52,394 nucleotides of DNA from positions 1-52,394 of the forward strand of contig CAYHYG010000003.1 in assembly GCA_964360835.1 (NCBI GenBank), given 5' to 3'. Both the position numbers and the translations under genes were made by a program. Source of the stretch: an uncultured Gammaproteobacteria bacterium (lineage in GTDB: Bacteria; Patescibacteriota; Patescibacteriia; UBA1558; 2-01-FULL-52-15). Below are positions 17,494 through 32,794 of the stretch, piece after piece. Within the stretch, counting starts at the first letter, position 1. Each line of letters begins with the position of its first letter. The notes under the pieces are model-generated. The model was not told where the DNA came from. It worked only from the letters and a program-made list of their open reading frames with translations, and ran no database searches.

Positions 17494-19068
17494 CTAGAGG
17501 TCAAGATCAATGCAAGTTTGGTTCGTCGGTGGCCTACAACTTATATCAGGACTGGGACACGGACTTACCCAACTACCGTTTACTAATTGCTTATTACAGG
17601 TACACACTCGTCTTTGAAACCCATTAGTGCATGGGGTCCAATTAGTGCAGGCCCATTGGTAAATACTACATTGAGGAGGGGTTACCCCTATGACTATACC
17701 GGAACAAGTAAGATTACATGCACCTTCTACAGAATTACTATTAGCCGCACCATCATCACAGACCTCTGTAAATCCTTGAGCGCCATTGGGTCTATTCACA
17801 TATCCATCACCGCATGTAGTCAACCGACATTCGTTGGTGCAGGTATCAAGGTTAGATATATCTCCATCATCACACTGCTCAATGAAGCCAACGCCATTAG
17901 GTGATTGCAGTTGACCATCACCACAAACGGTATATCCAGTACAACGGGCATTACAACGACCGCTATTTGTCTGGGTAATATCAGAGCCATAGGCCTCACT
18001 ACCAACAGTGTCAAAACAAACTGGCTGAACGGTATCTGTGATGGCTCTTTGTTGGCAATTGGCCGTTCCACAATGCTGACTGCATCCCACTCCTGTGTCA
18101 GCGCACACCCCACACAGCGCTCCATAGGGCTCCAGCTGTGGTGAGGTTACATTCTTGATAATGCTGGCTTCGGAGAATATCACGTACTGAAAAATATCAG
18201 ACAAGGCGGGATTAAATGGCGTGGTCACGGTTATCTCTTGGCTGGCGTTTCGGAAGCGTCCACGCGTCTGTATGGAAACCAGCGAGGGTAATCCGGCGCT
18301 ATTGTCTGTGGTGACAGAAAGTCGTTTCAGACCGTCGTCGATCGGGCGGATTGAAACATGGTAGAACTTGCTAGGAGTCAGGGATAATCTGCTGATTGTT
18401 GTATTACACTGGTTTGGAGTAACTCCACTACCGGTACAATCGCAAATAAAATAGTACTTCTGAGGCCGGCCAAACTGCAGACCGCTGGCATTCTGGAAAG
18501 TCACCAGGGAAACCTCCAATCTCTGACTGCCGCCGCAGGCCTTGACCTCCCAGTCAATCTTCAACTGATTGGCTTGTGTATCAATAACTGGATGAATAAC
18601 CGTCGGCGTTTCCTGGGTTGGATCAAAGACATTTAACTGCGCCGAAGAAAAAATTGGTAAATCATAGACAACGTATTCAGGTGAGGTTGTAGAAATTTTG
18701 ATGATATCATAGAGACGGTCTTTATCAGCATATGGACTTGGTGATATATAGGTTCTGTCCAACTGACGATTTAAGGTATTACTACGATTAAAAAACAAAT
18801 AATAAGGATACGGTGTCACCAGCTCGTCCAATCCTTTAGACTCTTTTAAAAACCAGAGCATCTCCTCGGCCGCGCTTTCAGCCGCGTAATGAGCTACTAC
18901 AGAGCTATCGAGATACCGCGCCGAGTTGATCTCTGTGATCAATAGACGACTGAGGGCAATGGTGGCAAACATGGTGATAGTTAATATCACCAGAGACATG
19001 AGCAAAACTGCTCCCCGGCTTGGATCCTGTAAAGACTTTCTTTTGCTACTGAATATTTCTGGGCGCAT
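17494..19068 (-). CDS. PilX-like minor pilus protein with C-terminal Cys-rich CGDG/CDDG repeats
   Basis: PilX_N-like SRGAVLLMSLVILTITMFATIAL. C-terminal CGDGQLQSPNGVGFIEQCDDG...C.NEC..TTCGDGYVNRPNGAQGFTEVCDDG resembles the Myxococcus-type cysteine-rich repeat. Confidence 0.55.
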   Translation of the reverse strand: MRPEIFSSKRKSLQDPSRGAVLLMSLVILTITMFATIALSRLLITEINSARYLDSSVVAHYAAESAAEEMLWFLKESKGLDELVTPYPYYLFFNRSNTLNRQLDRTYISPSPYADKDRLYDIIKISTTSPEYVVYDLPIFSSAQLNVFDPTQETPTVIHPVIDTQANQLKIDWEVKACGGSQRLEVSLVTFQNASGLQFGRPQKYYFICDCTGSGVTPNQCNTTISRLSLTPSKFYHVSIRPIDDGLKRLSVTTDNSAGLPSLVSIQTRGRFRNASQEITVTTPFNPALSDIFQYVIFSEASIIKNVTSPQLEPYGALCGVCADTGVGCSQHCGTANCQQRAITDTVQPVCFDTVGSEAYGSDITQTNSGRCNARCTGYTVCGDGQLQSPNGVGFIEQCDDGDISNLDTCTNECRLTTCGDGYVNRPNGAQGFTEVCDDGAANSNSVEGACNLTCSGIVIGVTPPQCSIYQWACTNWTPCTNGFQRRVCTCNKQLVNGSWVSPCPSPDISCRPPTNQTCIDLDL

Positions 19069-19858
19069 AATAACGTGTAGAAATCATAGTTTGAAAAAGG
19101 AGCGTCCGCTGACGCGCTACGTTAGCATTATTGGTGGCCGTCATCTGGATGGAAGTAAATGGCTGTTCTGTGGGATCGTCATTAGGATAAAATACCAAGG
19201 AGTCAATCCGAATACTGGGATCATTGAGGACTGACCAGCTAGCGCCCGAACATGAGGTACTATGACTAAGCTCGGCATTGAGATTAACGGCATTATGACG
19301 GATAAAAGTTGTCTGACCGCTCAAATCTTTGAGACAGATAAAATTGACATCCGGACAATTGCAGGTCGTCGGATCGGTATCAATAGTATGAGAGCGAATC
19401 TCGCGAGCAATCTGCTCAAATACCAACTGACTCTCGTTCAAAACAGCGACATTGGCTCTAGCATTATTCTGAGCTGTAGTCGTACCGATAAAAATCGAGC
19501 TAATTGCAATGAAAGCCAATGAAAAAATAGCAATCGTGACCAACATTTCTACTAGAGTATACCCAGCACCATTTTCAAGTAAGCTGTATTTAGCTCTTTT
19601 TTTAAACTCTCTTGAAGCATTGCCATGAGCTTTTAGCCTTTGTTCACGCTCTCGTGCATCAGCTTCCGAATTATATGCTTCATAAGCCACTACTTTCCAC
19701 GGCCTATACGGCCTAGTTGAAGTAACAAGCCCTTCATTATGCTCGTTTAACCTTCTATCTAAATTTTTGGTTGAGCCCATATATGTTTTACCTGTTTTTA
19801 CACTTTGTATTAAGTAGACGAAGTACATAAAAAATGGTGCTGGGCATATCCTTTTCAT
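19046..19858 (-). CDS. GIY-YIG nuclease domain fused in frame to a PilW-like type IV pseudopilin
   Basis: MKRICPAPFF-MYFVYLIQSVKTGKTYMGSTKNLDRRLNEHNEG...RPWKVVAYEAY..EADAREREQRLKAHGN...LLENGAG|YTLVEMLVTIAIFSLAF. The track start (19867) is GTG; ATG at 19858 follows the upstream stop by 1 nt. Confidence 0.8.
   Translation of the reverse strand: MKRICPAPFFMYFVYLIQSVKTGKTYMGSTKNLDRRLNEHNEGLVTSTRPYRPWKVVAYEAYNSEADAREREQRLKAHGNASREFKKRAKYSLLENGAGYTLVEMLVTIAIFSLAFIAISSIFIGTTTAQNNARANVAVLNESQLVFEQIAREIRSHTIDTDPTTCNCPDVNFICLKDLSGQTTFIRHNAVNLNAELSHSTSCSGASWSVLNDPSIRIDSLVFYPNDDPTEQPFTSIQMTATNNANVARQRTLLFQTMISTRYYAPRNIQ
19562..19844 (-). mobile_element. GIY-YIG element copy 1 (intact): 283-bp unit bounded by 14-bp perfect inverted repeats
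   Basis: On the plus strand, cccagcaccatttt (19562-19575) and aaaatggtgctggg (19831-19844) are exact reverse complements enclosing the GIY-YIG coding segment. Confidence 0.7.
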
Positions 19859-19859
19859 A

Positions 19860-20585
19860 TTATTCACGCCAGTTATATAATTTCTCTTTGACCGTCACCA
19901 TCTGACTACTGCCATACTTAACAATACCCGTGACCAATACGCCTATCTTGACATCACCAGTTGCACAGGAGAGACCGTACTCTCTGGTGCTCTCTACGTC
20001 ATTCGTGTCATTCCAGCAAATATCCTGAAGCACCACCAGCCGATGGAGCGATTCGTTATAACCATAGCCTACGGGAATACCGAAAGACAGAGCACAAAGG
20101 TCGCCAGCCATTTTTAAACAAGAACACATATAGTCCAATCTCTGACAACCAGATGAAAACGGATCAGGTACATCAACTTTGGTAAAACTATAGGTATCAG
20201 GGGTTCCCTGGCCTACTATGAAGGCCGGCGCCACAGACGCACCACTAACACCGGCAAATCGATCCCACGTGTAGGGTGTCGTTCCGGCTAGTATATTCAG
20301 ATCACTGCGCAGCCAATTGGTGTCACGAGTATTGCGTACGGCTTCGACCGCTGAGCGGGCTAGGTTAGCGGCAAAAACCCGACTGATATTATCTCGCGAA
20401 GCCCGATAATTTGATGTAGCCAGCACCAGAGCTCCGACCAAACCAGTGACAATGACGGCCAAAGCAATGATTACCTCTATCAAGGTGAACCCAGCATCAT
20501 TTTTTTGCCGCTTATTTTCCTCGTGTAACGAAATGCCTAAATTTCCTTTCATCTTTTGATTTTCAAAAAATTGTATCATCTGCAT
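19860..20585 (-). CDS. PilV-like type IV pseudopilin with an atypically long 32-aa leader
   Basis: MQMIQFFENQKMKGNLGISLHEENKRQKNDAG|FTLIEVIIALAVIVTGLVGALVL. The leader is encoded by the miniature element. Confidence 0.75.
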   Translation of the reverse strand: MQMIQFFENQKMKGNLGISLHEENKRQKNDAGFTLIEVIIALAVIVTGLVGALVLATSNYRASRDNISRVFAANLARSAVEAVRNTRDTNWLRSDLNILAGTTPYTWDRFAGVSGASVAPAFIVGQGTPDTYSFTKVDVPDPFSSGCQRLDYMCSCLKMAGDLCALSFGIPVGYGYNESLHRLVVLQDICWNDTNDVESTREYGLSCATGDVKIGVLVTGIVKYGSSQMVTVKEKLYNWRE

Positions 20586-20604
20586 AAAAATAATGCTGGG
20601 TTCA
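20486..20604 (-). mobile_element. GIY-YIG element copy 3: internally deleted miniature derivative (119 bp) with 19-bp inverted repeats (18/19 match)
   Basis: On the plus strand, tgaacccagcatcattttt (20486-20504) versus aaaaataatgctgggttca (20586-20604). The 81 nt between them keep an ORF from the ATG abutting the repeat. Confidence 0.65.
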
Positions 20605-20606
20605 TC

Positions 20607-21194
20607 TCAGCAACCACTTAAACTTTGCTCTATACGCAGAGAAGAATCTTGCGCTGTAGGAGCGAACTTGATTGAAGCAATACAACTATTACCAGTTACC
20701 CGTATCTGAAATATTATATTGCTACTATTCTGAGTCCAGAACTGTAAACAAAGAGGAGCTCCACAATTATTCTGCAGTTTAGGGAAGCTGTCTCCGTCAA
20801 AAATAATAGTCCCCTTGGCAATAGTACCCACACTACCGTTAAGAAAACGAAAATTAACATTGTTGGAAAGAGTATACGTCGCGACTCCTTCATCACTGTC
20901 ATAGATACCGTCATCACTTTTATCCGCGAACAAAATATACTGACGTGGCGTCACGGTGTTATCGAGGTACAAACCCCAACCCCCGGCTGGATAGACACTA
21001 TCAGCAGGGTTGACAATGCCATTGAAAGCTCTGTTCCTAGCCTGACGCAGGACAGCTACGACGCGATCAGCATCGGCTTTGATAATATCTTTGGTACCCA
21101 CTCCGCGCATTGTGACCACAGCAATCCCCATCAAAATACCGAAAATAGCGATGACGACTAAAAGTTCTATCATAGTATAACCATTTACTTTCAT
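20607..21194 (-). CDS. GspH/FimT-like type IV pseudopilin
   Basis: MKVNG|[22 protein letters not shown]...LRQARNRA. The ATG at 21194 overlaps the pilD stop (ATGA). The track's N-terminal extension is unlikely. Confidence 0.75.
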   Translation of the reverse strand: MKVNGYTMIELLVVIAIFGILMGIAVVTMRGVGTKDIIKADADRVVAVLRQARNRAFNGIVNPADSVYPAGGWGLYLDNTVTPRQYILFADKSDDGIYDSDEGVATYTLSNNVNFRFLNGSVGTIAKGTIIFDGDSFPKLQNNCGAPLCLQFWTQNSSNIIFQIRVTGNSCIASIKFAPTAQDSSLRIEQSLSGC

Positions 21195-21958
21195 GGCAGT
21201 AAAACTAAATTCTGATACCAGTCCCATATCTGGCCGCCGTAGAGCATGGCTATGAATGTAGACAAACTAAGAAAGGTACCAAATGGCACTTGGCTGGTCA
21301 TTTTCTTGCGACCGAGAATGATCAAAAAAATTCCAATAATACTGCCGGATAAATAAGCGATCATCAGCGCCACCGTAATCTGCGGCCACCCCAGAAGTAG
21401 TCCCATCGCCAACCCCAGCTTGACATCACCGAAGCCAATCCAGCGACCATGTGAAACCAGATACTGCAACCCAAAGAATCCAGCGCCAACCAGAGAGCCT
21501 ATCAAAAGATCCAGCCAGGATCGGCCTAACAATAAATTGCTCATGGCGCTGATCACGGCTAGTGGCCAGACAATTACATCCGGAATAATGTAATGTTTGA
21601 GGTCATAGACAAAGATGATAGCTAGTAGTGAAGTAACTATTATACCGCTAATAAAACCAATGATTGATAAAGGGTCTGTCAACGAATACATGGTACCAAG
21701 CATGACAAAAGCCAGGCCCATAGCTACCTCCACCAGTGGATATTGCACCGAGATAGACTTGTGGCAGTAGCGGCACTTTCCGACCAATATGATCCAGCTG
21801 ATGAGCGGTACCAAATCAATCCAGCTCAAGGAATGTCTACAGTCTGGGCAACGGGAACGCCCTTTGATAAACGACTCGTCCAAGCGCAGACGGTAAATCA
21901 CGGCATTGAGAAAACTGCCGATAATGAGGCCAAAGACAAAAAGAAAAAATAGTATCAT
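21191..21958 (-). CDS. pilD: Prepilin peptidase / N-methyltransferase (A24 family)
   Basis: 255 aa polytopic protein. CPDC...CRYC zinc motif and GFGDVKL active-site Asp motif. Confidence 0.9.
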   Translation of the reverse strand: MILFFLFVFGLIIGSFLNAVIYRLRLDESFIKGRSRCPDCRHSLSWIDLVPLISWIILVGKCRYCHKSISVQYPLVEVAMGLAFVMLGTMYSLTDPLSIIGFISGIIVTSLLAIIFVYDLKHYIIPDVIVWPLAVISAMSNLLLGRSWLDLLIGSLVGAGFFGLQYLVSHGRWIGFGDVKLGLAMGLLLGWPQITVALMIAYLSGSIIGIFLIILGRKKMTSQVPFGTFLSLSTFIAMLYGGQIWDWYQNLVLLP

Positions 21959-21966
21959 TCGGGTGA

Positions 21967-21972
21967 ATTATA
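21967..21972 (-). promoter_or_regulatory. Extended -10 (TGGTATAAT) 8 nt upstream of the pilD ATG, implying a leaderless or near-leaderless mRNA
   Basis: The minus strand reads AAATTATGGTATAATTCACCCGAATG. Confidence 0.35.
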
Positions 21973-22002
21973 CCATAATTTCAGAGCAAAAACAGTCCAG
22001 TC

Positions 22003-22731
22003 TTATGGAGTTGTACTAGTTACACATCCCGTTTCAGTACATGTAATGGTTTTCCCGCCCGAGAGACAGGTTGTTGGTAACGGGAAAGTGGTTGATGATG
22101 GCTCACAAGCAGAAAAAGTAAAGGTCGCAGAATCTGAATTTGAGTTAGCCAAGAATTTATAAATCCAGGGGTTTCTAGTGTCTTTGGCTAAATCGGGCCA
22201 TGTTCCAACTGCTGGGCTATCATTCAAACAGATAGCCGATGTCGCGTCTGGTTTTCCTAGCGGACCAGAAGCAGCTCCATTACAAGCATCCATACCCGCC
22301 GGCGCCGCGCAATTCAGTTGCACATTGCTCTGCAAACAGACTGAAGCCCCTTTCAGTAGATTATTCATGGTTGACTCCATCTGGGTCAACTTGGCTTTTG
22401 TACGGGTTGAAGATAAATTTACAACCGCCACAGCAGATAGTATGCCTATAATGGCAATGACTACCAAAAGTTCAATTAAAGTAAACCCAGCACCATTTTT
22501 CAAACTTCCCCGAGCTCTTCTCTTTAATTCTTTAATGGCATTTCCATGTGCTTTTAATTTTTGTTCATGCTCTCTTGCATCTGCTTCTGAGCTATAGGCC
22601 TCATAGACAGCGAGCCTCCATGGCCTGTATGGTTTTGTTGAGCTAACTAAACCGTCATTATGCTCCTGGAGCCTTCTCTCTAAATTATTTGTGGAACCCA
22701 TATAAATTCTATTTATTTTTAAACTTTTCAA
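22003..22731 (-). CDS. Type IV pilin carrying a truncated GIY-YIG domain as an N-terminal extension
   Basis: ...IYMGSTNNLERRLQEHNDGLVSSTKPYRPWRLAVYEAYSSEADAREHEQKLKAHGN...SLKNGAG|[24 protein letters not shown], with a Cys-rich C-terminal globular part. The track start is TTG; the first ATG is at 22701. Confidence 0.75.
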   Translation of the reverse strand: MKSLKINRIYMGSTNNLERRLQEHNDGLVSSTKPYRPWRLAVYEAYSSEADAREHEQKLKAHGNAIKELKRRARGSLKNGAGFTLIELLVVIAIIGILSAVAVVNLSSTRTKAKLTQMESTMNNLLKGASVCLQSNVQLNCAAPAGMDACNGAASGPLGKPDATSAICLNDSPAVGTWPDLAKDTRNPWIYKFLANSNSDSATFTFSACEPSSTTFPLPTTCLSGGKTITCTETGCVTSTTP

Positions 22732-22859
22732 GGAGCTTGTCTAGATCTTTAGAGTAGTTCTAAGATTAAGACATGCCCCAGAAGATTCTAAAAGGTAGTC
22801 GGTTAAGTAACCGGACGGTAGGCAATATATAGACAAAATACATAAAAATGGTGCTGGGT
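22485..22859 (-). mobile_element. GIY-YIG element copy 2 (ORF disrupted), bounded by 16-bp perfect inverted repeats
   Basis: On the plus strand, acccagcaccattttt (22485-22500) and aaaaatggtgctgggt (22844-22859) are exact reverse complements. The orphaned prepilin start ATGAAGAAGGGATTTA lies just outside, with its ATG at 22874-22872. Confidence 0.7.
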
Positions 22860-22894
22860 AAATCCCTTCTTCATATTTTATTTTACTATTTATA

Positions 22895-23320
22895 TTAAGT
22901 GCACTGCAATTTGTACATAGGTCGTATCTGACATTTCTTACCTTCCAACCCTTGACCAGACCAACGGTGAGACAAACGGAAAGAAATAGTATAACTCGAA
23001 CCGTCACTGGTATAGGTTCCACCAGAATCTAACCTAGCATAATAATACACCTTTCCGGACGGGTTGCCAAAGCCGCTATCGCTGATCACCATGACTCCTG
23101 CCAATTTTTTGTCCGTCGCTACTGGATAGCTACGATGTTGTCCATAGTAAGCTTCCAAACCATAGCTATAGGCTTTCAATCCAGACAATAGGCGTACGTC
23201 GTTGGCTTTGCCACCGTAATACAAGGACAATCCAAAGACAAACCCCAAAATGATGACCGAAATCGCTAGTGAAACAATATAGAATCGGTATTTGTAGAAA
23301 AATTCCCAAGATAGTAACAT
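22895..23320 (-). CDS. Membrane-anchored hypothetical protein in the pilin block
   Basis: MLLSWEFFYKYRFYIVSLAISVIILGFVFGLSLYY, then a ~100-aa soluble part. No prepilin motif. The track start (23362) is TTG. Confidence 0.45.
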   Translation of the reverse strand: MLLSWEFFYKYRFYIVSLAISVIILGFVFGLSLYYGGKANDVRLLSGLKAYSYGLEAYYGQHRSYPVATDKKLAGVMVISDSGFGNPSGKVYYYARLDSGGTYTSDGSSYTISFRLSHRWSGQGLEGKKCQIRPMYKLQCT

Positions 23321-23398
23321 ATGAAACTCTAAATTCCTGCCTCGACTTGTCGTCTTCGGCAAGGCGGGCTAAATACTAAGCTCAATTTAATAACGTCT

Positions 23399-23486
23399 GC
23401 GACGATGCTACGTCAGACGTAGCGGAGGAAGCAGTCTAACATGCAAATATTAATGCTAGATTGCTTCCCACGTCTGACGTGGTCGC
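23399..23486. other. Long imperfect inverted repeat built from ACGTC-N-GACGT palindromes, downstream of the second pilin gene
   Basis: ACGTCAGACGT (23410-23420) versus ACGTCTGACGT (23470-23480). GGAAGCA (23427-23433) versus TGCTTCC (23462-23468). GCGA/TCGC form an outer clamp. Confidence 0.6.
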
Positions 23487-23498
23487 AAACAGTACAAA

Positions 23499-23960
23499 CT
23501 AACAACTAGCAGCAACACCCTTTATACACCCATTACTCGAATCGCAGACAATACACACATCTTGATCAATATTACGCATAGAAAATTCCCATCTTTGACT
23601 GCTGGCAGTGTATTCGCATGGTAGATAGGTAAAATTATAGGTACCAATATATGGCCAGGTACCGAGATTACCAACCGTGCAAAAAGGATCTCCGTCTCTT
23701 GGCGTATTCTGAATAGGAGTACCATCACCACAGGTAATAGGTCCACTACCGTCGTTACGGCTAGTGATCTGACCACCAGAATCAGTACATAGCATCATAC
23801 CGGCAATCAAATTATTAGCCGAAGCCTGACCAGCTGCGACTTTAGCCTTACCACGAGCGCTATTCAAGTTGACGATAGAGATAGCTGACAAGATACCGAT
23901 AATGGCGATGACGACCAGTAATTCTATCAGCGTAAAACCTTTTGTACTCACTCCTTTCAT
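23499..23960 (-). CDS. Type IV pilin (paralog 2)
   Basis: MKGVSTKG|[32 protein letters not shown], with a Cys-rich C-terminus. The track's upstream extension overlaps the preceding pilin gene and is not credible. Confidence 0.85.
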   Translation of the reverse strand: MKGVSTKGFTLIELLVVIAIIGILSAISIVNLNSARGKAKVAAGQASANNLIAGMMLCTDSGGQITSRNDGSGPITCGDGTPIQNTPRDGDPFCTVGNLGTWPYIGTYNFTYLPCEYTASSQRWEFSMRNIDQDVCIVCDSSNGCIKGVAASC

Positions 23961-24033
23961 ACACATAGTATACCAAACAAAATACAGACTGTCTTGATGA
24001 GATAGTCTGTATTTATCTAATAACAACCGATAA

Positions 24034-24477
24034 CTAACATCCAACGTATGTACATCCTGAAGCAGCGCTACAGGTAATAGTACAGGTACCATTAGATGCC
24101 TGAAAGGAGAAGGTGCTATTCGGCTTGTCCGATATACATCCCGTAGCACCAGCCGCGCCGTAAGTAAATCCGTTACCTAAAATAACTGGCCAATTACCAA
24201 TATTGGCAACGCTACAGAATGATCCACCAGGAGTAATCGCAAGGCCGCTCGCTGCAACTGCTGGGCAGGTTGCTGCGGCTCCGTTTTGAATTACGCCGGT
24301 CGCATCATCCTGACAAATTACTAATCCCGGGATTACACCACTCAATGCAGCCTTGGCGGCAGCAATCTTGGCCTTATCACGAGCTGAGTTCAAGTTGACG
24401 ATGGCGATAGCTGAGAGAATACCGATAATAGCGATAACCACCAACAATTCGATCAAGGTAAAACCTTTTTTATTCAT
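24034..24477 (-). CDS. pilA: Type IV major pilin candidate
   Basis: MNKKG|[33 protein letters not shown] strong SD (GGGAGGTG) precedes the ATG, and the gene has its own promoter. 147 aa. Confidence 0.85.
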
Positions 24478-24681: not shown

Positions 24682-25890
24682 TTATTGAAAACTCCGCGCC
24701 AACTCCATCATCGGCACCATGACCGCGCCGACCATGAAAGCCACACCCACGCCTAAAGTCACTAGAATTATCGGCTCAATCAGTGAGGTCAAGGTCGAGA
24801 CTAAGGTTGTGACTTCACGATCATAAAAATTACCCAAACGTTCCAGGATTTCGTCCAGCTTACCAGTCTGCTCACCCACAGCCATCATCTCCGTGACAAT
24901 CTTTGGTATCAGACGACTCTCGGCCGTAACGGTAGTAATAGAATTACCATCCTGCACTTCCTTGATAGTTTGGACCAGTACTTCACGATAGGCAGCATTA
25001 TCGACTACCTCACTGGTAATCTCCAAAGCCGTACCAATAGGCACGCCGCCTTTGATCAGAGTAGCCAGACTGCGTGTCAGACGCACCAGGATAACCTTAT
25101 TCAGAATCAAGCCGAAAACGGGAACTTTCAAGATGATCCGACTCCAGACATCTCGACCTGATTTGGTCGCTGTATAGGCACGGAGTAGAGCTATGACACC
25201 GACAAATATGACCGGTATTGTCCACCAATAAATAGTCATAAAATCACTGATCTGAATCAGGATACGAGTGGCGATGGGCAACTCTCCTCCGCTTTCTTTC
25301 AATAAATTGGCAATATTGGGGATAACGTAGACCATCATAACGATACCCACGGCAATCATAACTAAAACGATGATAGCCGGATAAATCATAGCACCACGAA
25401 TACGGTTGACCAGATCATAATCTTTTTCCATCTGATCGGCTAGATAATTCAAAACTTCGTCCAGACGTCCGCTAGTCTCTCCGGAATGAATCATAGCTAC
25501 AAAAAACCGACTGAAAACTTTGGGATGACGACCAAACGCCTGAGACATAGGAAGACCGCCATCGACATCATCTGCCATTTGTTTGGCCACATCGCGTATC
25601 TGTGACGAATCTGTCTGCTGAGACAAAACTCTCAGAGCCGGCACGATCGGCACCGTAGCCTGAACCATGACCGCTAGCTGTCGGGCAAAAATTACAATAT
25701 CCTTCATACGCGGGCCACCGATATTGATATTACGAAAATTTCGATGGACGCCTCTGACCTGATGCAGTCGTACCACTACCAAACCACGATCAGACAGGAC
25801 CTCATTGGCCGCAGTTATAGTAGAGGCTTCGACGGTCCCTTGAGAAACTTGTCCAATGGGGCTGACTGCTTTGTAACGATATAACGCCAT
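24682..25890 (-). CDS. pilC: Type IV pilus platform protein (GspF/PilC family)
   Basis: 402 aa with two T2SSF repeats and three TM segments. Confidence 0.9.
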   Translation of the reverse strand: MALYRYKAVSPIGQVSQGTVEASTITAANEVLSDRGLVVVRLHQVRGVHRNFRNINIGGPRMKDIVIFARQLAVMVQATVPIVPALRVLSQQTDSSQIRDVAKQMADDVDGGLPMSQAFGRHPKVFSRFFVAMIHSGETSGRLDEVLNYLADQMEKDYDLVNRIRGAMIYPAIIVLVMIAVGIVMMVYVIPNIANLLKESGGELPIATRILIQISDFMTIYWWTIPVIFVGVIALLRAYTATKSGRDVWSRIILKVPVFGLILNKVILVRLTRSLATLIKGGVPIGTALEITSEVVDNAAYREVLVQTIKEVQDGNSITTVTAESRLIPKIVTEMMAVGEQTGKLDEILERLGNFYDREVTTLVSTLTSLIEPIILVTLGVGVAFMVGAVMVPMMELARSFQ

Positions 25891-25899
25891 GAATCTATC

Positions 25900-26973
25900 T
25901 TATTGCTTAACCATTAGCTGGAGACCGTTAGGGTCTACGGCATATTTGGACGCCTGGTCTAGCGACAGAATACCTGCTTTGACCAGGTCAGCCAAACTAC
26001 GATCCAGAGTAATCATACCATCCTGACGCGAAGTCATCATCACATTGCTCAGTTGGAAAAAATTACCGTCACGCAGAACGTTACGCACCGCGCCATTCAT
26101 AGTCAAAATGCCAGAAACAAGCTGCAAACTGTTATCAGATTTGGGGACTAAGCGCTGATTGGTCATGATCAGGAGATGCTCCGAGATAATATCCTTGGCC
26201 CACTGCTGCTCCGATGGAGGTATCAGACCCATGAATGACTCCAGAGTCGTGGATATAGACAGACCATTCAAAACCACCAACACCAATTTACCACCCTCGA
26301 CCGCCTGCAATATTGCTACTTCCTCAGCCGCTTCATTGACATGAGCTACCACGATGACATCGACATCAGCATCTACCGCTTCATGAAGTCCGTCGATGAA
26401 AGACGGCACATCAGTACCGACCTGACGCTGATGAATGACTGATTTATTATTGACCAACTGATATTCAATTGGTTGTTCTAAAGTTAAAATGTGTCGACTT
26501 TGTGTCTGGTTGACATATTCCACCAGACTAGCCGCAGTGGTCGAACGTCCAGAATTATACGGTCCAGAGATAAAGATCAACCCTTTGGTCTTGGCCATAG
26601 CAGCGATCAACATTGGTGAGATCTGTAGCTCCTTGGGCAAAAGTAATCTTGGCGGTATCACCCGTAAAGATAAAGACATATATCCACGTTGATAAAATAC
26701 CTGGGCTCGGAATCTAGCCCGATCAGCCCAAGTATAGACCGTGGCCACCTCGCGCTGTCGTTGTAAGGCTTCGTTTTCTGCAGGAGACAAAAAAGATTCT
26801 GCCACAGTATTCAGGACATCAGGTGTCAAAATCTGATCCTGGGTGGCTGTCACCAGCTGACCATTGATGCGATAGACCGGATAATTGCCGACGGTCAAGT
26901 GAATATCAGTGGCCTTGCGCTCCAGAGCGTCGTTCAGAATTTTATTCAGCAGTAAGCTGGTGGTGGTGCTCAT
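25900..26973 (-). CDS. pilT: Type IV pilus retraction ATPase
   Basis: 357 aa. Walker A GPYNSGRSTT, TLEQPIEY, and PilT-like length and layout. Confidence 0.85.
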   Translation of the reverse strand: MSTTTSLLLNKILNDALERKATDIHLTVGNYPVYRINGQLVTATQDQILTPDVLNTVAESFLSPAENEALQRQREVATVYTWADRARFRAQVFYQRGYMSLSLRVIPPRLLLPKELQISPMLIAAMAKTKGLIFISGPYNSGRSTTAASLVEYVNQTQSRHILTLEQPIEYQLVNNKSVIHQRQVGTDVPSFIDGLHEAVDADVDVIVVAHVNEAAEEVAILQAVEGGKLVLVVLNGLSISTTLESFMGLIPPSEQQWAKDIISEHLLIMTNQRLVPKSDNSLQLVSGILTMNGAVRNVLRDGNFFQLSNVMMTSRQDGMITLDRSLADLVKAGILSLDQASKYAVDPNGLQLMVKQ

Positions 26974-27362
26974 GATTGACTAATAATCTTTTTGATCCTT
27001 TCCACCACCTCTGACGGTACGAAATGCGCCTTGATCAGATAATCTTCCGCTCCCAGATTGAGGCATCTATCAATGTGTTCCTTTTGACCATAGTTAGTCA
27101 GGACTAATACGGGTATCGACTTGGTCTCAGGATTTTTCTTTAACTCTTCCAAAACCTGGAAGCCGTCCATAATCGGCAAATTTAGATCCAAAAGTATCAG
27201 ATCTGGTCTTTCTTTGGTGGCCATTTTTAGACCCTTAGCGCCGTCCGTGGCCATAAAAACGACATAATTTTCTATCTCCAATTTGGTCGCATACATCTGC
27301 ACCAAAAAGTCGTCGTCTTCGACAATGAGAATTTTTTTTGATTCTGCCATAGTGTTATTCAT
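26970..27362 (-). CDS. CheY-like single-domain response regulator
   Basis: ILIVEDD...DLILLDLNLP..DG...T.. K. 130 aa. ATGA overlap with pilT. Confidence 0.85.
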   Translation of the reverse strand: MNNTMAESKKILIVEDDDFLVQMYATKLEIENYVVFMATDGAKGLKMATKERPDLILLDLNLPIMDGFQVLEELKKNPETKSIPVLVLTNYGQKEHIDRCLNLGAEDYLIKAHFVPSEVVERIKKIISQS

Positions 27363-29099
27363 TTATAATTCACTTTCGCTGGCACGTAACACTTCCTCCA
27401 AAGTGGTGATACCTAGCAATGATTTGATAATGCCGTCTTGCTCCATGCTGATGAAATGCTGATCCTCCAGCTCCTTCTGCACGTCGGACATTTTGAATCC
27501 AGTAGCTATCAGCTCACGCATCTTGCGGGATACATTGATAGCCTCGACAATAGCGATACGCCCGCGATAGCCGACATCACCGCATCTACTACAACCTTTG
27601 CCATGAAAAAATCTCAAAGGATCACTCTTTTTGATGCCGCCATAAAATGAGGCCTCGGGAATACCGACTACTCGATTCTTTATTTTTTGCACAATTTCTG
27701 GCGATATAGCTATTTCCTCTCGGCAATTATCACAGATGCGCCTGACCAGACGTTGCGCGATTATCAGATTCAAAGTCGACGATAAGAGGAACGGCTCAAC
27801 TTTCATGTCAAACAAACGCGGGACAGCGCCTAGAGCACTATTGGTGTGCAATGTTGATAGTAAAAAATGTCCGGTCAAGGCCGCTTGAATAGCTAGACTA
27901 GCTGTCTCACGGTCGCGAATTTCTCCGACCATCATAATATCCGGATCTTGACGTAGGAGTGACCGCAGACCAGTAGCAAAGTTGAAGCCAACCTCCGGAC
28001 GAATCTGTGACTGATTGACGCCTTTAATAAAATACTCGACCGGATCTTCCAGCGTTGTAATATTGATCGCCTCACGGTTAATACGATCCAAGACAGAATA
28101 GAGCGTGGTAGATTTGCCAGAGCCAGTCGGTCCAGTCACCAAAAACATGCCGTTCGGTTTTTCTATGTTTGCCTCTGTTATCTCCCCTTGGATTCCCATA
28201 TAACCCAGATCTGCCAGAGTCGGCGCCTTATCTGGCGTGGCCAGGATACGCATAACGACTTTTTCTGTATTTACCAGTGGAATAGTAGAAATACGAAAAT
28301 CAACATCGCGCTTGTGCACCTGTAGACGGATACGACCGTCTTGCGGAGCTCGCGTCTCGTCAATTTTGAGATTGGCCATAACTTTGATACGAGAGATCAG
28401 GGCGGCGTGAACATAGATAGGCAACACAATGGTGGTATGCAAGATTCCGTCAATACGATAGCGTACTCGACTCTGGTCACCGACCGGTTCTATATGGATA
28501 TCAGAAGCACGACCTTCAATGGCATGACGCAAAATAACAGAAATAATCTTGGTGACTGGCGCACTCTTGATAACTTCATCCACATCTTCACCCTGTTCAT
28601 CACGCGGAGCAAAGATTTCTTCAGCCACGCCCAAGGCCTCGCCTACCTCTTCACCCAAGGATTCATACTGCTTGGTAGAGGCGCGGTAGCTGTCAGCCGA
28701 TATTAAATAATACTTAGCACGCAAACCCAATTTGCGTGCCACAAATTCTACTGCTTCGATGGCTTTCAAGTTTGACGGGTCTATCATACCGACTTCCAGA
28801 TCCTCCCTAGTCTTGGCAAAAACCACCATCTGATAATTTTCAGCCAAATCACGTGGTAGATTGTTCAACACCGTGGAGCCGATAAGCTTACCGACCAAAT
28901 TGATGTAAGAAACATTTAATAGCAATGCCTTATATTCGGTCCACTGTTCCTCGGACATTTTTATCACGCCACGGACAATACGCTCCATCTCTGCCACCGT
29001 GGTCGGTGTCTGGGTGGATAAAAGACGTAATTGGCCCTGATCCAAGAGATGATCAGCGGCCAGTCGTTGTAGTAGCTCTTGATAACGACTATTGGGCAT
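27363..29099 (-). CDS. pilB: Type IV pilus assembly ATPase (GspE/PilB family)
   Basis: 578 aa. Walker A GPTGSGKSTT, tetracysteine motif CDNC...CSRC, and an N-terminal T2SSE_N-like region. Confidence 0.9.
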   Translation of the reverse strand: MPNSRYQELLQRLAADHLLDQGQLRLLSTQTPTTVAEMERIVRGVIKMSEEQWTEYKALLLNVSYINLVGKLIGSTVLNNLPRDLAENYQMVVFAKTREDLEVGMIDPSNLKAIEAVEFVARKLGLRAKYYLISADSYRASTKQYESLGEEVGEALGVAEEIFAPRDEQGEDVDEVIKSAPVTKIISVILRHAIEGRASDIHIEPVGDQSRVRYRIDGILHTTIVLPIYVHAALISRIKVMANLKIDETRAPQDGRIRLQVHKRDVDFRISTIPLVNTEKVVMRILATPDKAPTLADLGYMGIQGEITEANIEKPNGMFLVTGPTGSGKSTTLYSVLDRINREAINITTLEDPVEYFIKGVNQSQIRPEVGFNFATGLRSLLRQDPDIMMVGEIRDRETASLAIQAALTGHFLLSTLHTNSALGAVPRLFDMKVEPFLLSSTLNLIIAQRLVRRICDNCREEIAISPEIVQKIKNRVVGIPEASFYGGIKKSDPLRFFHGKGCSRCGDVGYRGRIAIVEAINVSRKMRELIATGFKMSDVQKELEDQHFISMEQDGIIKSLLGITTLEEVLRASESEL

Positions 29100-31615: not shown

Positions 31616-32794
31616 TTAAACAATATCTTTCATAGCTAAACCAATAGCCGAAGCCATGTGCGGAGCCATACTGTCGAGCACCGGCTTCAAATCTAATGGA
31701 TAAATAACACGATCCCAAGGATTGCCGATAATAGTCTGGATCTTGACATTATTATATATATATTCGGTCAAATGCGGTAGGAAGGCCGAACCACCAGATA
31801 AAATTATTTTTTCTACCTTCAGCGTTCCTTGATTTTGATATAATTCGCTGACGTATTTAATTTCATTCATTATTGGATCCAGACTGGCGGATATTGTCTG
31901 TGGAATGCCTTTACTGGGATCACCGACCATGACACCAAAATCAATTTTAAATTGTTCCGCTCGTTCAAAGGTAACGTTGAGACTGTTCATGATCGACTTA
32001 GTAATGGTATATCCCCCGATATCAATGCCGCGGTTTAAGATTGGCACTCCTTTCTCAATAATGACAATGTCCGTCGACAATGAACCAATATCGACAATCA
32101 TTGAAGTGGTCAGGTCATTACCGATAAGCGAGCGAGACAAAGCGAAAGCTTCTGTCTCCAAGCTCAGAAGTGTCAGGTTGGCCTGTCGAAATATCTCAAT
32201 ATAGCTAGCTACCAGATTCTTGGGCGCAGCAGTCAATAATAAGCGTATAGTATCTTTGGAGCTTTTGCCCGCGGCTTTGGCTAGGGCTTTCTGTTCGGCT
32301 GCCATTTCCTCTTCCTGAGCCTTTTTCAGCTCCTCAGGACTCTTGGCTTGCTCTTTTTTCTTACGAAAAAGTGATCCAAGATCACGACTTAAAGGATTGG
32401 TACTGAGTTGAGCGTCACCGGCTTCCGATAGCACCTCCCAGTCAAGTATCATCTCCTCCAGTGGTAGTGGAATAAATTTTTTGGCTTCCCATCTGACGGC
32501 TGCCGCCAGATCTTTGCGCGACATTTTGGGTAAGCTGATGATGGAATTAAAAACGGCGAAGGTAGGTAAGGCAGCTACGCAGTTGGTGGTGGTGACACGT
32601 GATTTTCGGACAAGCTCAGCCAGAATTCGCGCAGTTTTCTCTTGGTTAACTGCTGAATTACTCTTGATCATATCAGTCTGAACTTCAGCCACACCGTAGG
32701 TTACGAGGGCTGGTTGCTTATTCTGATCAGCTAATTCAACAATTTTTATGGCCGATGTGCCGATATCTACTCCTAAAAAGCTCTTTTTTGCCAT
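31616..32794 (-). CDS. pilM: PilM actin-like pilus assembly ATPase
   Basis: 392 aa. FLGVDIGTSAIKIVEL and DIGSLSTDIVII actin-fold phosphate motifs. Confidence 0.85.
   Translation of the reverse strand: MAKKSFLGVDIGTSAIKIVELADQNKQPALVTYGVAEVQTDMIKSNSAVNQEKTARILAELVRKSRVTTTNCVAALPTFAVFNSIISLPKMSRKDLAAAVRWEAKKFIPLPLEEMILDWEVLSEAGDAQLSTNPLSRDLGSLFRKKKEQAKSPEELKKAQEEEMAAEQKALAKAAGKSSKDTIRLLLTAAPKNLVASYIEIFRQANLTLLSLETEAFALSRSLIGNDLTTSMIVDIGSLSTDIVIIEKGVPILNRGIDIGGYTITKSIMNSLNVTFERAEQFKIDFGVMVGDPSKGIPQTISASLDPIMNEIKYVSELYQNQGTLKVEKIILSGGSAFLPHLTEYIYNNVKIQTIIGNPWDRVIYPLDLKPVLDSMAPHMASAIGLAMKDIV

Follow-up and report, generated by a model that had tools for sequence, protein, structure and literature searches.

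A hairpin-bracketed GIY-YIG nuclease element at the prepilin cleavage codon of type IV pilin genes

In a 52,394-nt stretch of DNA (contig CAYHYG010000003.1 of assembly GCA_964360835.1, from an uncultured bacterium that GTDB places in the Patescibacteriota; hereafter the window), the pilin genes of a type IV pilus cluster hold three copies of one small mobile element of ~283 nt, found at three stages of decay. The element encloses a gene for a small GIY-YIG nuclease between two inverted repeats and ends on the codon for Gly(-1) of a prepilin, at the site of prepilin peptidase (PilD). We regard the presence of a mobile element at the prepilin cleavage codon as close to certain, and the overall explanation proposed here, a selfish element made tolerable by leader-peptidase cleavage, as probable.

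Pfam N_methyl, the prepilin motif, matched six open reading frames (ORFs) in the window (24034-24477, 23499-23966, 22003-22731, 20607-21194, 19860-20585 and 19046-19867), all six also recognised by TIGR02532, and their products have the features of class III signals, namely Gly(-1), Phe or Tyr(+1), Glu(+5) and a hydrophobic alpha1 helix. In two of them the Pfam GIY-YIG domain (PF01541) lies N-terminal to the prepilin motif, with E 1e-15 and 58.2 bits in 19046-19867 (copy 1; curated cut-off 22.6) and with E 6.5e-12 and 46 bits in 22003-22731 (copy 2), where the first 12 profile positions are absent. The 14-mer CCCAGCACCATTTT occurs seven times in the window at two mismatches or fewer, versus 0.35 occurrences expected, a count that none of 100 shuffles reached. 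Six of these matches make up three inverted pairs CCCAGCACCATTTT / AAAATGGTGCTGGG (Table 1), and the seventh (41104), within a large ORF, was rejected as a chance match. The element arms of 14-16 nt, CCC(A/C)GCACC.. and ..GGTGC(T/G)GGG, form a split hairpin round the nuclease gene. In all three copies the 3' arm, AAAATG(G/A)TGCTGGG, ends on the GGG codon of Gly(-1) and the codon that follows encodes Phe or Tyr(+1) of the mature pilin, the junctions being ENGAG↓YTLVEM, KNGAG↓FTLIEL and KNDAG↓FTLIEV (the arrow marks the cleavage site or, in DNA, the insertion point). The element has terminal inverted repeats, as insertion sequences and miniature inverted-repeat transposable elements (MITEs) do; its only protein gene is the GIY-YIG domain, and no recognised transposase (DDE, HUH, serine or tyrosine recombinase) was found in it. 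Searching the 52 kb with tblastn revealed no GIY-YIG copy beyond those known.

Copy 1 holds every residue that is invariant in the family and is apparently the only intact nuclease gene in the window; its pilin part gives NCBIfam minor-pilin matches, and the 4-mers that flank the element are TATG (19845-19848) and TATA (19558-19561). Copy 2 is flanked by TTTA on both sides (22859-22862 and 22482-22485), and its nuclease ORF is split between the GIY and the YIG motifs by a 94-nt insert with TTG at both junctions (fold -22.7 kcal/mol, z = -2.5) and carries His in place of R61, an Arg invariant in the family alignments. No second copy of this insert was present in the window or in 88 fetched loci, and as a single-copy sequence it was rejected as a recognisable repeat element. 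The original start codon of the copy 2 pilin and the nuclease ORF now lie in different frames; when copy 2 and one TTTA are taken out, ATGAAGAAGGGATTTACTTTAATTGAACTT reappears, a perfect prepilin start. Copy 3, internally deleted, keeps the element ATG (20585) in frame, which gives a 32-aa leader ending in KNDAG↓FTLIEV, and its alignment with copies 1 and 2 retains traces of the ATG and of the LDRRLNEHN-coding segment. Type IV prepilin leaders are short and basic, about 5-30 aa; the invaded genes depart from this rule, with leaders of ~100 aa in copy 1, at least 72-82 aa in copy 2 and 32 aa in copy 3.

Much of the original prediction, made from the sequence of the window, is borne out by these data: six prepilin genes accompany pilD in the block (N_methyl in six ORFs, A24 domains at 21191-21958), the element brings its own ATG and ends in (E/K)N(G/D)AG, and inverted repeats bracket it well beyond chance. 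Its statement that three pilins carry the element at one codon holds for the position, since Gly(-1) is shared by all, but only in part for the nuclease, which is broken in copy 2 by the insert and the His at R61 and reduced in copy 3 to a 111-nt remnant. The 5-bp duplication that it had suggested is present, but is best read as 4 bp (5 with the adjoining C) and is imperfect in copies 1 and 3.

The nuclease module, of 85-89 aa, is a single domain, which in the pilin lineage is fused to the pilin. After the catalytic domain comes either the prepilin or, in free-standing relatives, a stop codon, and a DNA-binding domain is absent. The catalytic residues, whose presence on proper alignment the original prediction had presupposed, are conserved: Y5, Y16, R26, H30 and E62 are invariant in 30-sequence alignments and N70 is invariant among the fusions, all are present in copy 1, and we take them to be equivalent to I-TevI Y6/Y17/R27/E75/N90. 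By sequence the closest PDB matches were UPF0213 (1zg2; 6e-5) and Slx1 (2e-3), not I-TevI, and Foldseek likewise returned UPF0213 1zg2 and Slx1 (root-mean-square deviation 1.7-2.2 A over ~73 residues), with I-TevI and UvrC far weaker. In the AF2 model of copy 1 the domain shows the GIY-YIG alpha/beta fold at pLDDT 96-98, and the cleavage site falls in a low-confidence linker (pLDDT about 57) between this domain and the long pilin alpha1 helix.

A further relative came from tblastn searches of plasmids, which gave two weak matches; one of these, in Azospirillum, is flanked by NTS-type hairpins (CCGTCATCCCCGCGAAGGCGGGGATCCAGG) whose stem resembles the element arms. With hhalign the alignment to this homologue had 98.5% probability, E 2e-15 and 38% identity, values which speak for homology and not for placement in the Ssn clade (CDD cd10448), and the C-terminal halves differ (..LKxHGNAxRELKKR.. 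in the element family versus ..LKKWNRDWK.. in the Azospirillum member). Taking sequence and fold together, we class the nuclease as a single-domain GIY-YIG enzyme of the Slx1/UPF0213/Ssn-like type. Ssn proteins are single-domain GIY-YIG enzymes of ~94 aa that cut only single-stranded DNA (ssDNA), at a point a few nt 5' of a hairpin repeat (NTS/SRM), which in most cases lies beside their own gene; the loop of the hairpin is irrelevant and may be extended or split, and neither double-stranded DNA (dsDNA) nor RNA is cut (Chenal et al. 2025, PMC11893778). The authors of that study likened the NTS-ssnA-NTS arrangement to an insertion sequence, and pilin fusions and bacteria of the Candidate Phyla Radiation (CPR) are unmentioned in it (PMC11893778). 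Insertions in CPR rRNA genes that encode GIY-YIG proteins are described as unlike both group I and group II introns (PMC11270868), and may belong to the same hairpin-bracketed family.

Fusions of this nuclease to prepilins proved to be widespread. With the nuclease and the N-terminus of the pilin as query, phmmer run exhaustively on 1.84 billion representatives gave 5830 hits. Among the best 150 clusters (at 50% identity), at least 78 followed the strict pattern of GIY-YIG then G↓FTLIE and ~13 more were fusions by their length (~90 in total), with the nuclease N-terminal in all of them, a junction consensus of K(S/N)GAG↓FTLIE, and no variation at Gly(-1) or Glu(+5) in alignments of the fusions. 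In a collection of 5.8 billion clusters a profile search found 464 matches with E<=1e-10, and the ~40 best were mostly proteins of 220-250 aa with PF01541 and, for most, also PF07963; the single match named by NCBI was a 'GIY-YIG nuclease family protein [Candidatus Levybacteria]'. A word-indexed homology search with a 132-aa fragment found no match. Free-standing relatives of the nuclease measure 83-110 aa. In some fusions the N-terminus (MKNKGFT-PHHFF-MHYVY, MERGFT-PYHFS-YVY) joins the original short leader, the 5' arm and the nuclease in one frame, and the linker peptides LPST(T/I)F, YPAPF and FTQHHF are what a second 5' arm encodes in its three frames; the odd linkers of many fusions are thus explained by tandem pairs of elements at one site, as seen in the locus L029 described below.

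These fusions had been found through their proteins, and the frame was also assessed irrespective of translation, in a frame-blind DNA search for the 3' arm followed by pilin codons (AATGGTGCKGGGTTYACNYTNRTNGA), which returned 59 sites on 56 metagenome contigs with 45 distinct junctions. Five of the 45 had a full nuclease ORF, in every case in frame with the pilin; about 40 were ORF-less, with the arms 4-90 nt apart or the 3' arm alone (for example MLNKKGFT-QHH-KNGAG↓FTLIELL). C-terminal nuclease fragments persist in some remnants, such as L045 (..LKKHGNAVRELKKRIERSFKNGAG↓) and L077, and the mini-leader form MLNKKGFTQHHKNGAG↓F.. carries two G↓FT sites. In L047 the nuclease is a decayed pseudogene in another frame, and the pilin has gained a new in-frame ATG. 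Among the 30 ORF-less minis with a recognisable 5' arm, 23 were in the host M..KKGFT frame and 3 and 4 in the other two, versus 10/10/10 expected (chi-square about 25), and nine of ten full-length copies found irrespective of frame (window copies 1 and 2, L001, L013, L041, L053, L064, L065, L068 and L047) were in frame. This bias indicates that translation through the element into the pilin is under selection, a conclusion we hold as very likely on the sequence evidence; reading-frame conservation in copies elsewhere, on which the original prediction depended, is thereby supported for the pilin insertions (~90 of 150 clusters, full-length copies and remnants). An in-frame fusion that keeps Gly(-1) and Glu(+5) is also what would be expected if synthesis of the pilin passes through the element and PilD then sets the pilin free.

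The nuclease itself evolves under purifying selection, copies within one genome showing a ratio of nonsynonymous to synonymous change (dN/dS) of about 0.1. Window copies 1 and 2 (pN 0.17, pS 0.71) share 68% identity in the nuclease and 28% in the host pilin, and two adjacent fusions in L027 (pN 0.14, pS 0.63) share 76% and 27%. Together with the kinship of copies 1 and 2, the latter being the closest database relative of the former (64% versus at most 60% for others in phmmer), this gap suggests that the element has spread from one pilin gene to another, non-orthologous one of the same genome. Two observations concern expression. In L001 (~2965-3003) 4 nt separate the stop of a host mini-ORF, MNKGFTQHHF, from the nuclease ATG, a spacing which suggests that ribosomes loaded at the host ribosome-binding site terminate and reinitiate on the nuclease. 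In L054 (minus strand, ~694-760 and ~1227-1300) the leaders hold 7-nt tandem repeats (AAGTTCA four times, TTTTCAA three times) which may serve phase variation, since seven is not a multiple of three and slipped-strand changes would switch the pilin on or off.

The family is not confined to pilins. A scan of GTDB genomes with the nuclease alone (8-sequence alignment) gave 24 loci in Patescibacteria, Omnitrophota, WOR-3, Thermodesulfovibrionia and others, and in 21 of them a perfect inverted repeat of 12-20 nt brackets an ORF of ~85 aa. The arm sequences vary by lineage yet always covary (ACCCCGCACTTT, CCCCCACTTTC, CACCGAGCACTCAAAT, ACCCCGCCCCCATTTT), and pilin insertions account for only two of the 24 loci. 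Tyrosine recombinases are hit between ..DLRY and IQELLGH (L003, L004 and L016; also L006 and L008), an insertion that splits off the catalytic Tyr (integrase box II) and through which L016 reads in frame; a response regulator is hit after codon 3 (MTK↓KILIVDDE; L005), its host ATG being in frame with the nuclease; and tRNA genes or their vicinity are hit in L011 and L014, with the 5' part duplicated. Two further conserved flanks recur around the element, TGCTCAAT.TTGTAGC.AAATTT and GAATT..↓..TTAATTCGC (L015, L020, L023 and L024; L017, L019 and L021).

Short direct repeats at the boundaries vary with the target, being TTTA(C) in pilins, TTCA in L001, TATA in the integrase of L016 and TAA(A/G) in the response regulator of L005. 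Such target-dependent duplication is characteristic of insertion sequences; here it is imperfect in old copies. At the pilin-lineage insertion site, the cleavage-site DNA GG(N)↓TTTA↓C, about 4 bp are duplicated; a duplication of 2 bp, in keeping with the 2-nt overhangs that GIY-YIG enzymes leave, was considered and rejected, the 4-bp reading fitting all loci better. Where two elements lie in tandem the TTTA(C) duplication occurs three times: L029 reads ..ggcTTTAC, full element, TTTAC, 27-nt solo hairpin, TTTAC, ATTAATTGAA...

Occupied and empty alleles of the same pilin were found in two sets of loci. The mature pilin of L054 is 100% identical to that of L063, L037, L070 and L073; the leader is MIKKFSIFNFQFLKKIGAGLPSTVKNGAG↓ in the occupied L054 and MIKKG↓ in the four empty loci. 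The upstream DNA of L054 and L063 is identical up to ATGATTAAAAAA, several substitutions fall in the first ~45 nt past the junction, and identity then resumes. The second pair joins P0152 (L029, with nuclease and solo hairpin) and P0257 (L088, element-free, leader MKTNCPKKLSPICG↓), whose mature pilins are identical. Their contigs show 100% identity for 2829 bp on the upstream side and 99.5% for 3439 bp on the downstream side, where the matching block sets in precisely at GGR↓TTTACATTAATTGAA. The stretch that separates these blocks measures 508 nt in the occupied allele and 207 nt in the empty one, and includes the diverged ~170-nt 3' end of the neighbouring pilin gene. Gain or loss of the element therefore occurs between near-identical strains, and in both allele pairs a segment was replaced, the breakpoint falling at the edge of the element. 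An ancient vertical domain fusion was rejected, as empty alleles exist. For the window locus itself, presence/absence variants sought via PilD yielded only two contigs, which were identical (Hainich groundwater, Logan run). The 0.1-um groundwater source and named relatives (Levybacteria, Staskawiczbacteria) point to a CPR origin of the window. Repeats, duplication, nested and tandem insertions, a decay series, empty alleles and unrelated target genes together uphold the original view of a selfish mobile element.

On these grounds we propose the following course of events. One continuous ORF, free of stop codons, runs from the ATG of the element (or of the host) through the pilin, and the 3' arm reads in frame as ..(N/S)-G-A-G; the element thus provides a new Gly(-1) and forms a single translation product with the pilin. 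The nuclease would then form a cytoplasmic 'leader' of ~90-100 aa, with the hydrophobic helix of the pilin acting as signal anchor, and PilD (in the window, the enzyme encoded at 21191-21958) would cut after Gly(-1) on the cytoplasmic face, giving a normal mature pilin and a free nuclease. Judging from the conserved frame and motif, we consider release of both products by PilD fairly likely, and the linker position of the junction in the AF2 model agrees with it. An insertion of this kind would be nearly harmless; it would persist and then decay through in-frame internal deletions, and the end-products of decay are seen as ORF-less hairpins that last as leader extensions of 10-30 aa. For mobility, homology to Ssn enzymes suggests that in ssDNA the two arms pair, and that the nuclease binds the stem and nicks a few nt 5' of it, at the boundary between element and host. 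The element could spread by insertion at TTTA-type sites, and also by recombination that carries flanking pilin sequence along, which matches the allele replacement with a boundary breakpoint. By analogy with the Ssn systems, we judge the chances of such ssDNA-hairpin mobility to be evenly balanced. The strongest form of the proposal, an autonomous DNA transposon whose sole enzyme is a GIY-YIG protein of ~85 aa acting on a split ssDNA hairpin, with a host leader peptidase providing a third kind of 'splicing', is put forward tentatively and is on balance doubtful.

Several points weigh against this proposal. Natural prepilin leaders are not known to exceed about 30 aa, versus a folded domain of ~90 aa here. 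To our knowledge GIY-YIG enzymes do not perform strand transfer, which leaves the chemistry of insertion unexplained. Neither occupied/empty pair represents a clean insertion, both being segment replacements with diverged flanks, and the duplication could in part reflect microhomology-mediated joining instead of a staggered cut. In the window, three uninvaded pilin genes with the same core lie beside the apparently intact copy 1, and a pS of about 0.7 marks copies 1 and 2 as old, so that current activity of the element there is doubtful.

Three other explanations were weighed against a selfish element spreading through its hairpin. The first is classical homing, taken as the mobility model of the original prediction, in which the GIY-YIG enzyme would break uninvaded GFTLIELL-coding dsDNA and the element would be copied in by homologous repair, with the conserved 5' sequence of the pilins serving as homology. 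The target is indeed the most conserved DNA of the pilin paralogs, the one-sided flank replacement in both allele pairs resembles co-conversion tracts, intragenomic copies are mutually closest while lying in non-orthologous pilins, and the sequence of invasion, degeneration and remnants matches the dynamics of homing-endonuclease genes; however, the protein is a bare catalytic domain of ~85 aa with no DNA-binding domain, nearest in sequence and fold to Slx1/UPF0213 and to the hairpin-flanked Ssn-type protein rather than to I-TevI, and characterised Ssn enzymes leave dsDNA uncut (PMC11893778). Homing, moreover, creates neither inverted repeats nor target duplications, and both are present, with TTTAC three times in L029. 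The single-domain Ssn-like type, the restriction of its relatives to ssDNA and the three target-bearing pilins left empty beside intact copy 1 thus make homing unlikely, and not the best-supported model of mobility.

A domesticated fusion, in which an ssDNase leader, membrane-tethered or released locally, screens transforming DNA or the hairpins, placed where constant and variable parts of tandem pilin genes meet, promote exchange of pilin cassettes, would have to be reconciled with the loss of the nuclease at about 40 of 45 junctions and in two of the three window copies, with the disruption of integrase box II, a response-regulator start and tRNA genes by the same family, and with a presence that is polymorphic between near-identical strains and can affect any pilin paralog. 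We therefore find it distinctly unlikely, even though Ssn/NTS modulates natural transformation and limits it in Neisseria (PMC11893778), CPR bacteria are thought to take up DNA via pili and ComEC (PMC12455944), purifying selection on the nuclease ORF is strong, recombination has its breakpoints at the edge of the element and several tandem pilins per locus bear hairpins. A role in the mRNA, the arms pairing to loop out the nuclease ORF with effects on translation (control, shunting or reinitiation) or as an RNase III site, appears very improbable. Covariation of the arms, which preserves their complementarity, is explained equally well by terminal inverted repeats or ssDNA hairpins; the position of the 5' arm just upstream of the nuclease ATG and the mini-ORF of L001 are compatible with translational coupling, and stem processing would make sense for the non-intron GIY-YIG insertions of CPR rRNA genes (PMC11270868), but SsnA does not bind RNA (PMC11893778), a cut in the stem would deprive the pilin of its start codon, the marked preference for the host frame indicates translation through the element and not around it, and Rfam finds no known RNA in the block.

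The selfish hairpin element shares traits with several known systems without coinciding with any. Like the GIY-YIG homing genes (I-TevI, I-BmoI, phage Seg/Mob), it is selfish, uses a conserved coding target, transfers flanks and follows a cycle of invasion and decay; unlike them it has no DNA-binding domain or intron, is not free-standing, and has repeats and a duplication, contrary to the I-TevI type, which combines catalytic domain, linker and DNA-binding domain and is intron-borne or intergenic without repeats. As with inteins, an in-frame insertion would be removed after translation and the host protein restored; but the fusions have no Hint domain (Pfam finds GIY-YIG and N_methyl only), no ligation would be involved, a host enzyme would perform the removal, and the arrangement would work only because the upstream 'extein' is a leader that can be discarded. 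Hairpin ends, a probable ssDNA mechanism, many non-autonomous miniature derivatives and a short AT-rich target are shared with IS200/IS605, REP/RAYT and MITEs, and the target of IS608 is TTAC; the element differs from IS200/IS605 in having a GIY-YIG enzyme instead of a HUH/Y1 transposase, in its duplication (none in IS200/IS605) and in targeting a protein-coding motif. Rickettsia palindromic elements, reportedly in-frame palindromic insertions in protein genes, are likewise short palindromic repeats translated in frame within host proteins, but they are scattered over many proteins and kept in the mature product, whereas here one site is used and the insert should be cleaved off. Rickettsia is listed among the genera rich in SRM (PMC11893778).

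The closest likeness is to the Ssn systems, with a single GIY-YIG domain of ~85-95 aa (fused to a pilin in the present lineage), C-rich hairpin-forming inverted repeats and many ORF-less hairpins (PMC11893778); the Ssn repeats ATCCCCGCG..CGCGGGGAT may be set beside the element arms (T)ACCCCGCAC..GTGCGGGGT(A). The differences are that the element gene lies within one split hairpin and the Ssn gene between complete hairpins, that the element has a target duplication and stands in frame with a host protein at one precise codon, and that NTS are intragenic in only 2% of cases (PMC11893778) while the element is inside coding sequence. The SRM pattern HGTCWY..YYVSBRH..WNVSBRG..RNCYNB does not fit the element repeats, which lack a conserved GTC upstream box, and solo hairpins of the element such as CCCGCACCGTCAAGAATGGTGCGGGG are analogous to SRM, not identical.

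The genes around the element form a complete type IV pilus cluster, all on the minus strand (Table 1), in which the pilin at 24034-24477 is probably the major pilin. Directly after it, an inverted repeat at 23980-24014 (15 nt, 5-nt loop, then a T run) is probably the intrinsic terminator of this gene. Between the pilin 23499-23966 and the ORF 22895-23362 lies an imperfect palindrome of ~110 nt (23385-23505, minus strand; GCGACCACGTCAGACGTGGGAAGCA ... TGCTTCC..ACGTCTGACGT..GTCGC), present once in the window, with a very stable RNA fold (-51.4 kcal/mol, z = -6.6). Candidate identities for it are an extended terminator, a small RNA and a further hairpin element. The gene that directly follows the last pilin (17494-19068, minus strand) encodes a 524-aa protein with an N-terminal hydrophobic segment and Cys-rich repeats, which matches myxo_disulf_rpt and, weakly, a tapirin-like N-terminus, and may be a pilus-tip adhesin. 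Rfam returned a single tRNA in the window, and no intron or known RNA in the pilin block.

Table 1 Coordinates of the element copies and of the pilus genes in the window
Feature	Position	Strand	Description
Inverted pair 1	19558-19575 / 19831-19848		18 nt, 94% complementary, 255 nt apart
Inverted pair 2	22485-22500 / 22844-22859		16 nt, 100% complementary, 343 nt apart
Inverted pair 3	20483-20515 / 20575-20607		33 nt, 82% complementary, 59 nt apart
Copy 1 element	19562-19844	minus	283 nt; 5' arm CCCAGCACCATTTT 19831-19844, 3' arm AAAATGGTGCTGGG 19562-19575
Copy 1 nuclease ORF	19562-19828	minus	MYFVY...NGAG; uninterrupted, 89 aa
Copy 1 fusion ORF	19046-19858	minus	270 aa: MKRICPAPFF, GIY-YIG domain, ENGAG↓YTLVEM, GspJ/ComGF-like minor pilin
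Copy 2 element	22486-22858	minus	5' arm 22845-22858; 3' arm 22486-22499
Copy 2 nuclease ORF, two parts	22823-22843; 22486-22728	minus	MYFVYIL; KSLKINRIYMGST...KNGAG
Insert in copy 2	22729-22822	minus	94 nt, with stop codons; splits the ORF between GIY and YIG motifs
Original start codon of copy 2 pilin	22872-22874	minus	ATG AAG AAG GGA TTT A = MKKGF..
Mature part of copy 2 pilin	22003-22485	minus	Pfam/NCBIfam pilin matches
Copy 3 element	20490-20600	minus	111 nt, internally deleted; 5' arm CCCAGCATTATTTT 20587-20600, 3' arm AAAATGATGCTGGG 20490-20503
Copy 3 host gene	19860-20585	minus	PilV-like minor pilin read from the element ATG; N_methyl match
PilD (prepilin peptidase)	21191-21958	minus	Pfam A24_N_bact 2.6e-32, Peptidase_A24 1.6e-14
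Uninvaded pilin	24034-24477	minus	MNKKG↓FTLIELL; strong Shine-Dalgarno; target core GGTTTTAC present
Uninvaded pilin	23499-23966	minus	..MKGVSTKG↓FTLIELL; target core GGTTTTAC present
Uninvaded GspH-like minor pilin	20607-21194	minus	MKVNG↓YTMIELL; start overlaps pilD stop
pilC	24682-25890	minus	type IV pilus cluster; pilins and pilD follow
pilT	25900-26973	minus	type IV pilus cluster
Receiver-domain protein	26970-27362	minus	within pilus cluster
pilB	27363-29099	minus	type IV pilus cluster
pilM	31616-32794	minus	type IV pilus cluster

Prepilin peptidase, hairpin-associated nucleases of the Ssn type and palindromic insertions read in frame, the components of this system, are each known already. 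In the literature on pilins, terminal inverted repeats, Patescibacteria and palindromic elements we found no account of this GIY-YIG/prepilin arrangement, and in the literature searched no description of a GIY-YIG/hairpin element with target duplication and empty alleles, of its specialisation on the prepilin cleavage site, or of a host leader peptidase used as the step that restores a host protein. If PilD does release the pilin, the element would represent a new answer to the problem every gene invader faces, that of not killing the host gene: it would occupy the one position in a protein whose upstream part the host already discards, a third way after introns (RNA splicing) and inteins (protein self-splicing). 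The corollary would be that prepilin peptidases process leaders containing a folded domain of 90 aa; such tolerance of a large N-terminal cargo, which the proposal predicts, would be usable for co-translational release of cytoplasmic proteins, and small sequence-specific ssDNA nucleases with defined, covarying hairpin sites are possible tools. If the autonomous transposon is real, its enzyme class is missing from present classifications of insertion sequences. The finding would explain the odd long or 'FTQHH..KNGAG' leaders of many predicted pilins in CPR and other uncultured bacteria, and the 'GIY-YIG nuclease family protein' annotations of proteins that are really pilins. For the nuclease family, it would show that Ssn-type GIY-YIG enzymes, described in 2025 as ssDNases of unclear role, include true mobile elements, with target duplications, empty and occupied alleles, and switching among pilins, integrases, response regulators and tRNAs.

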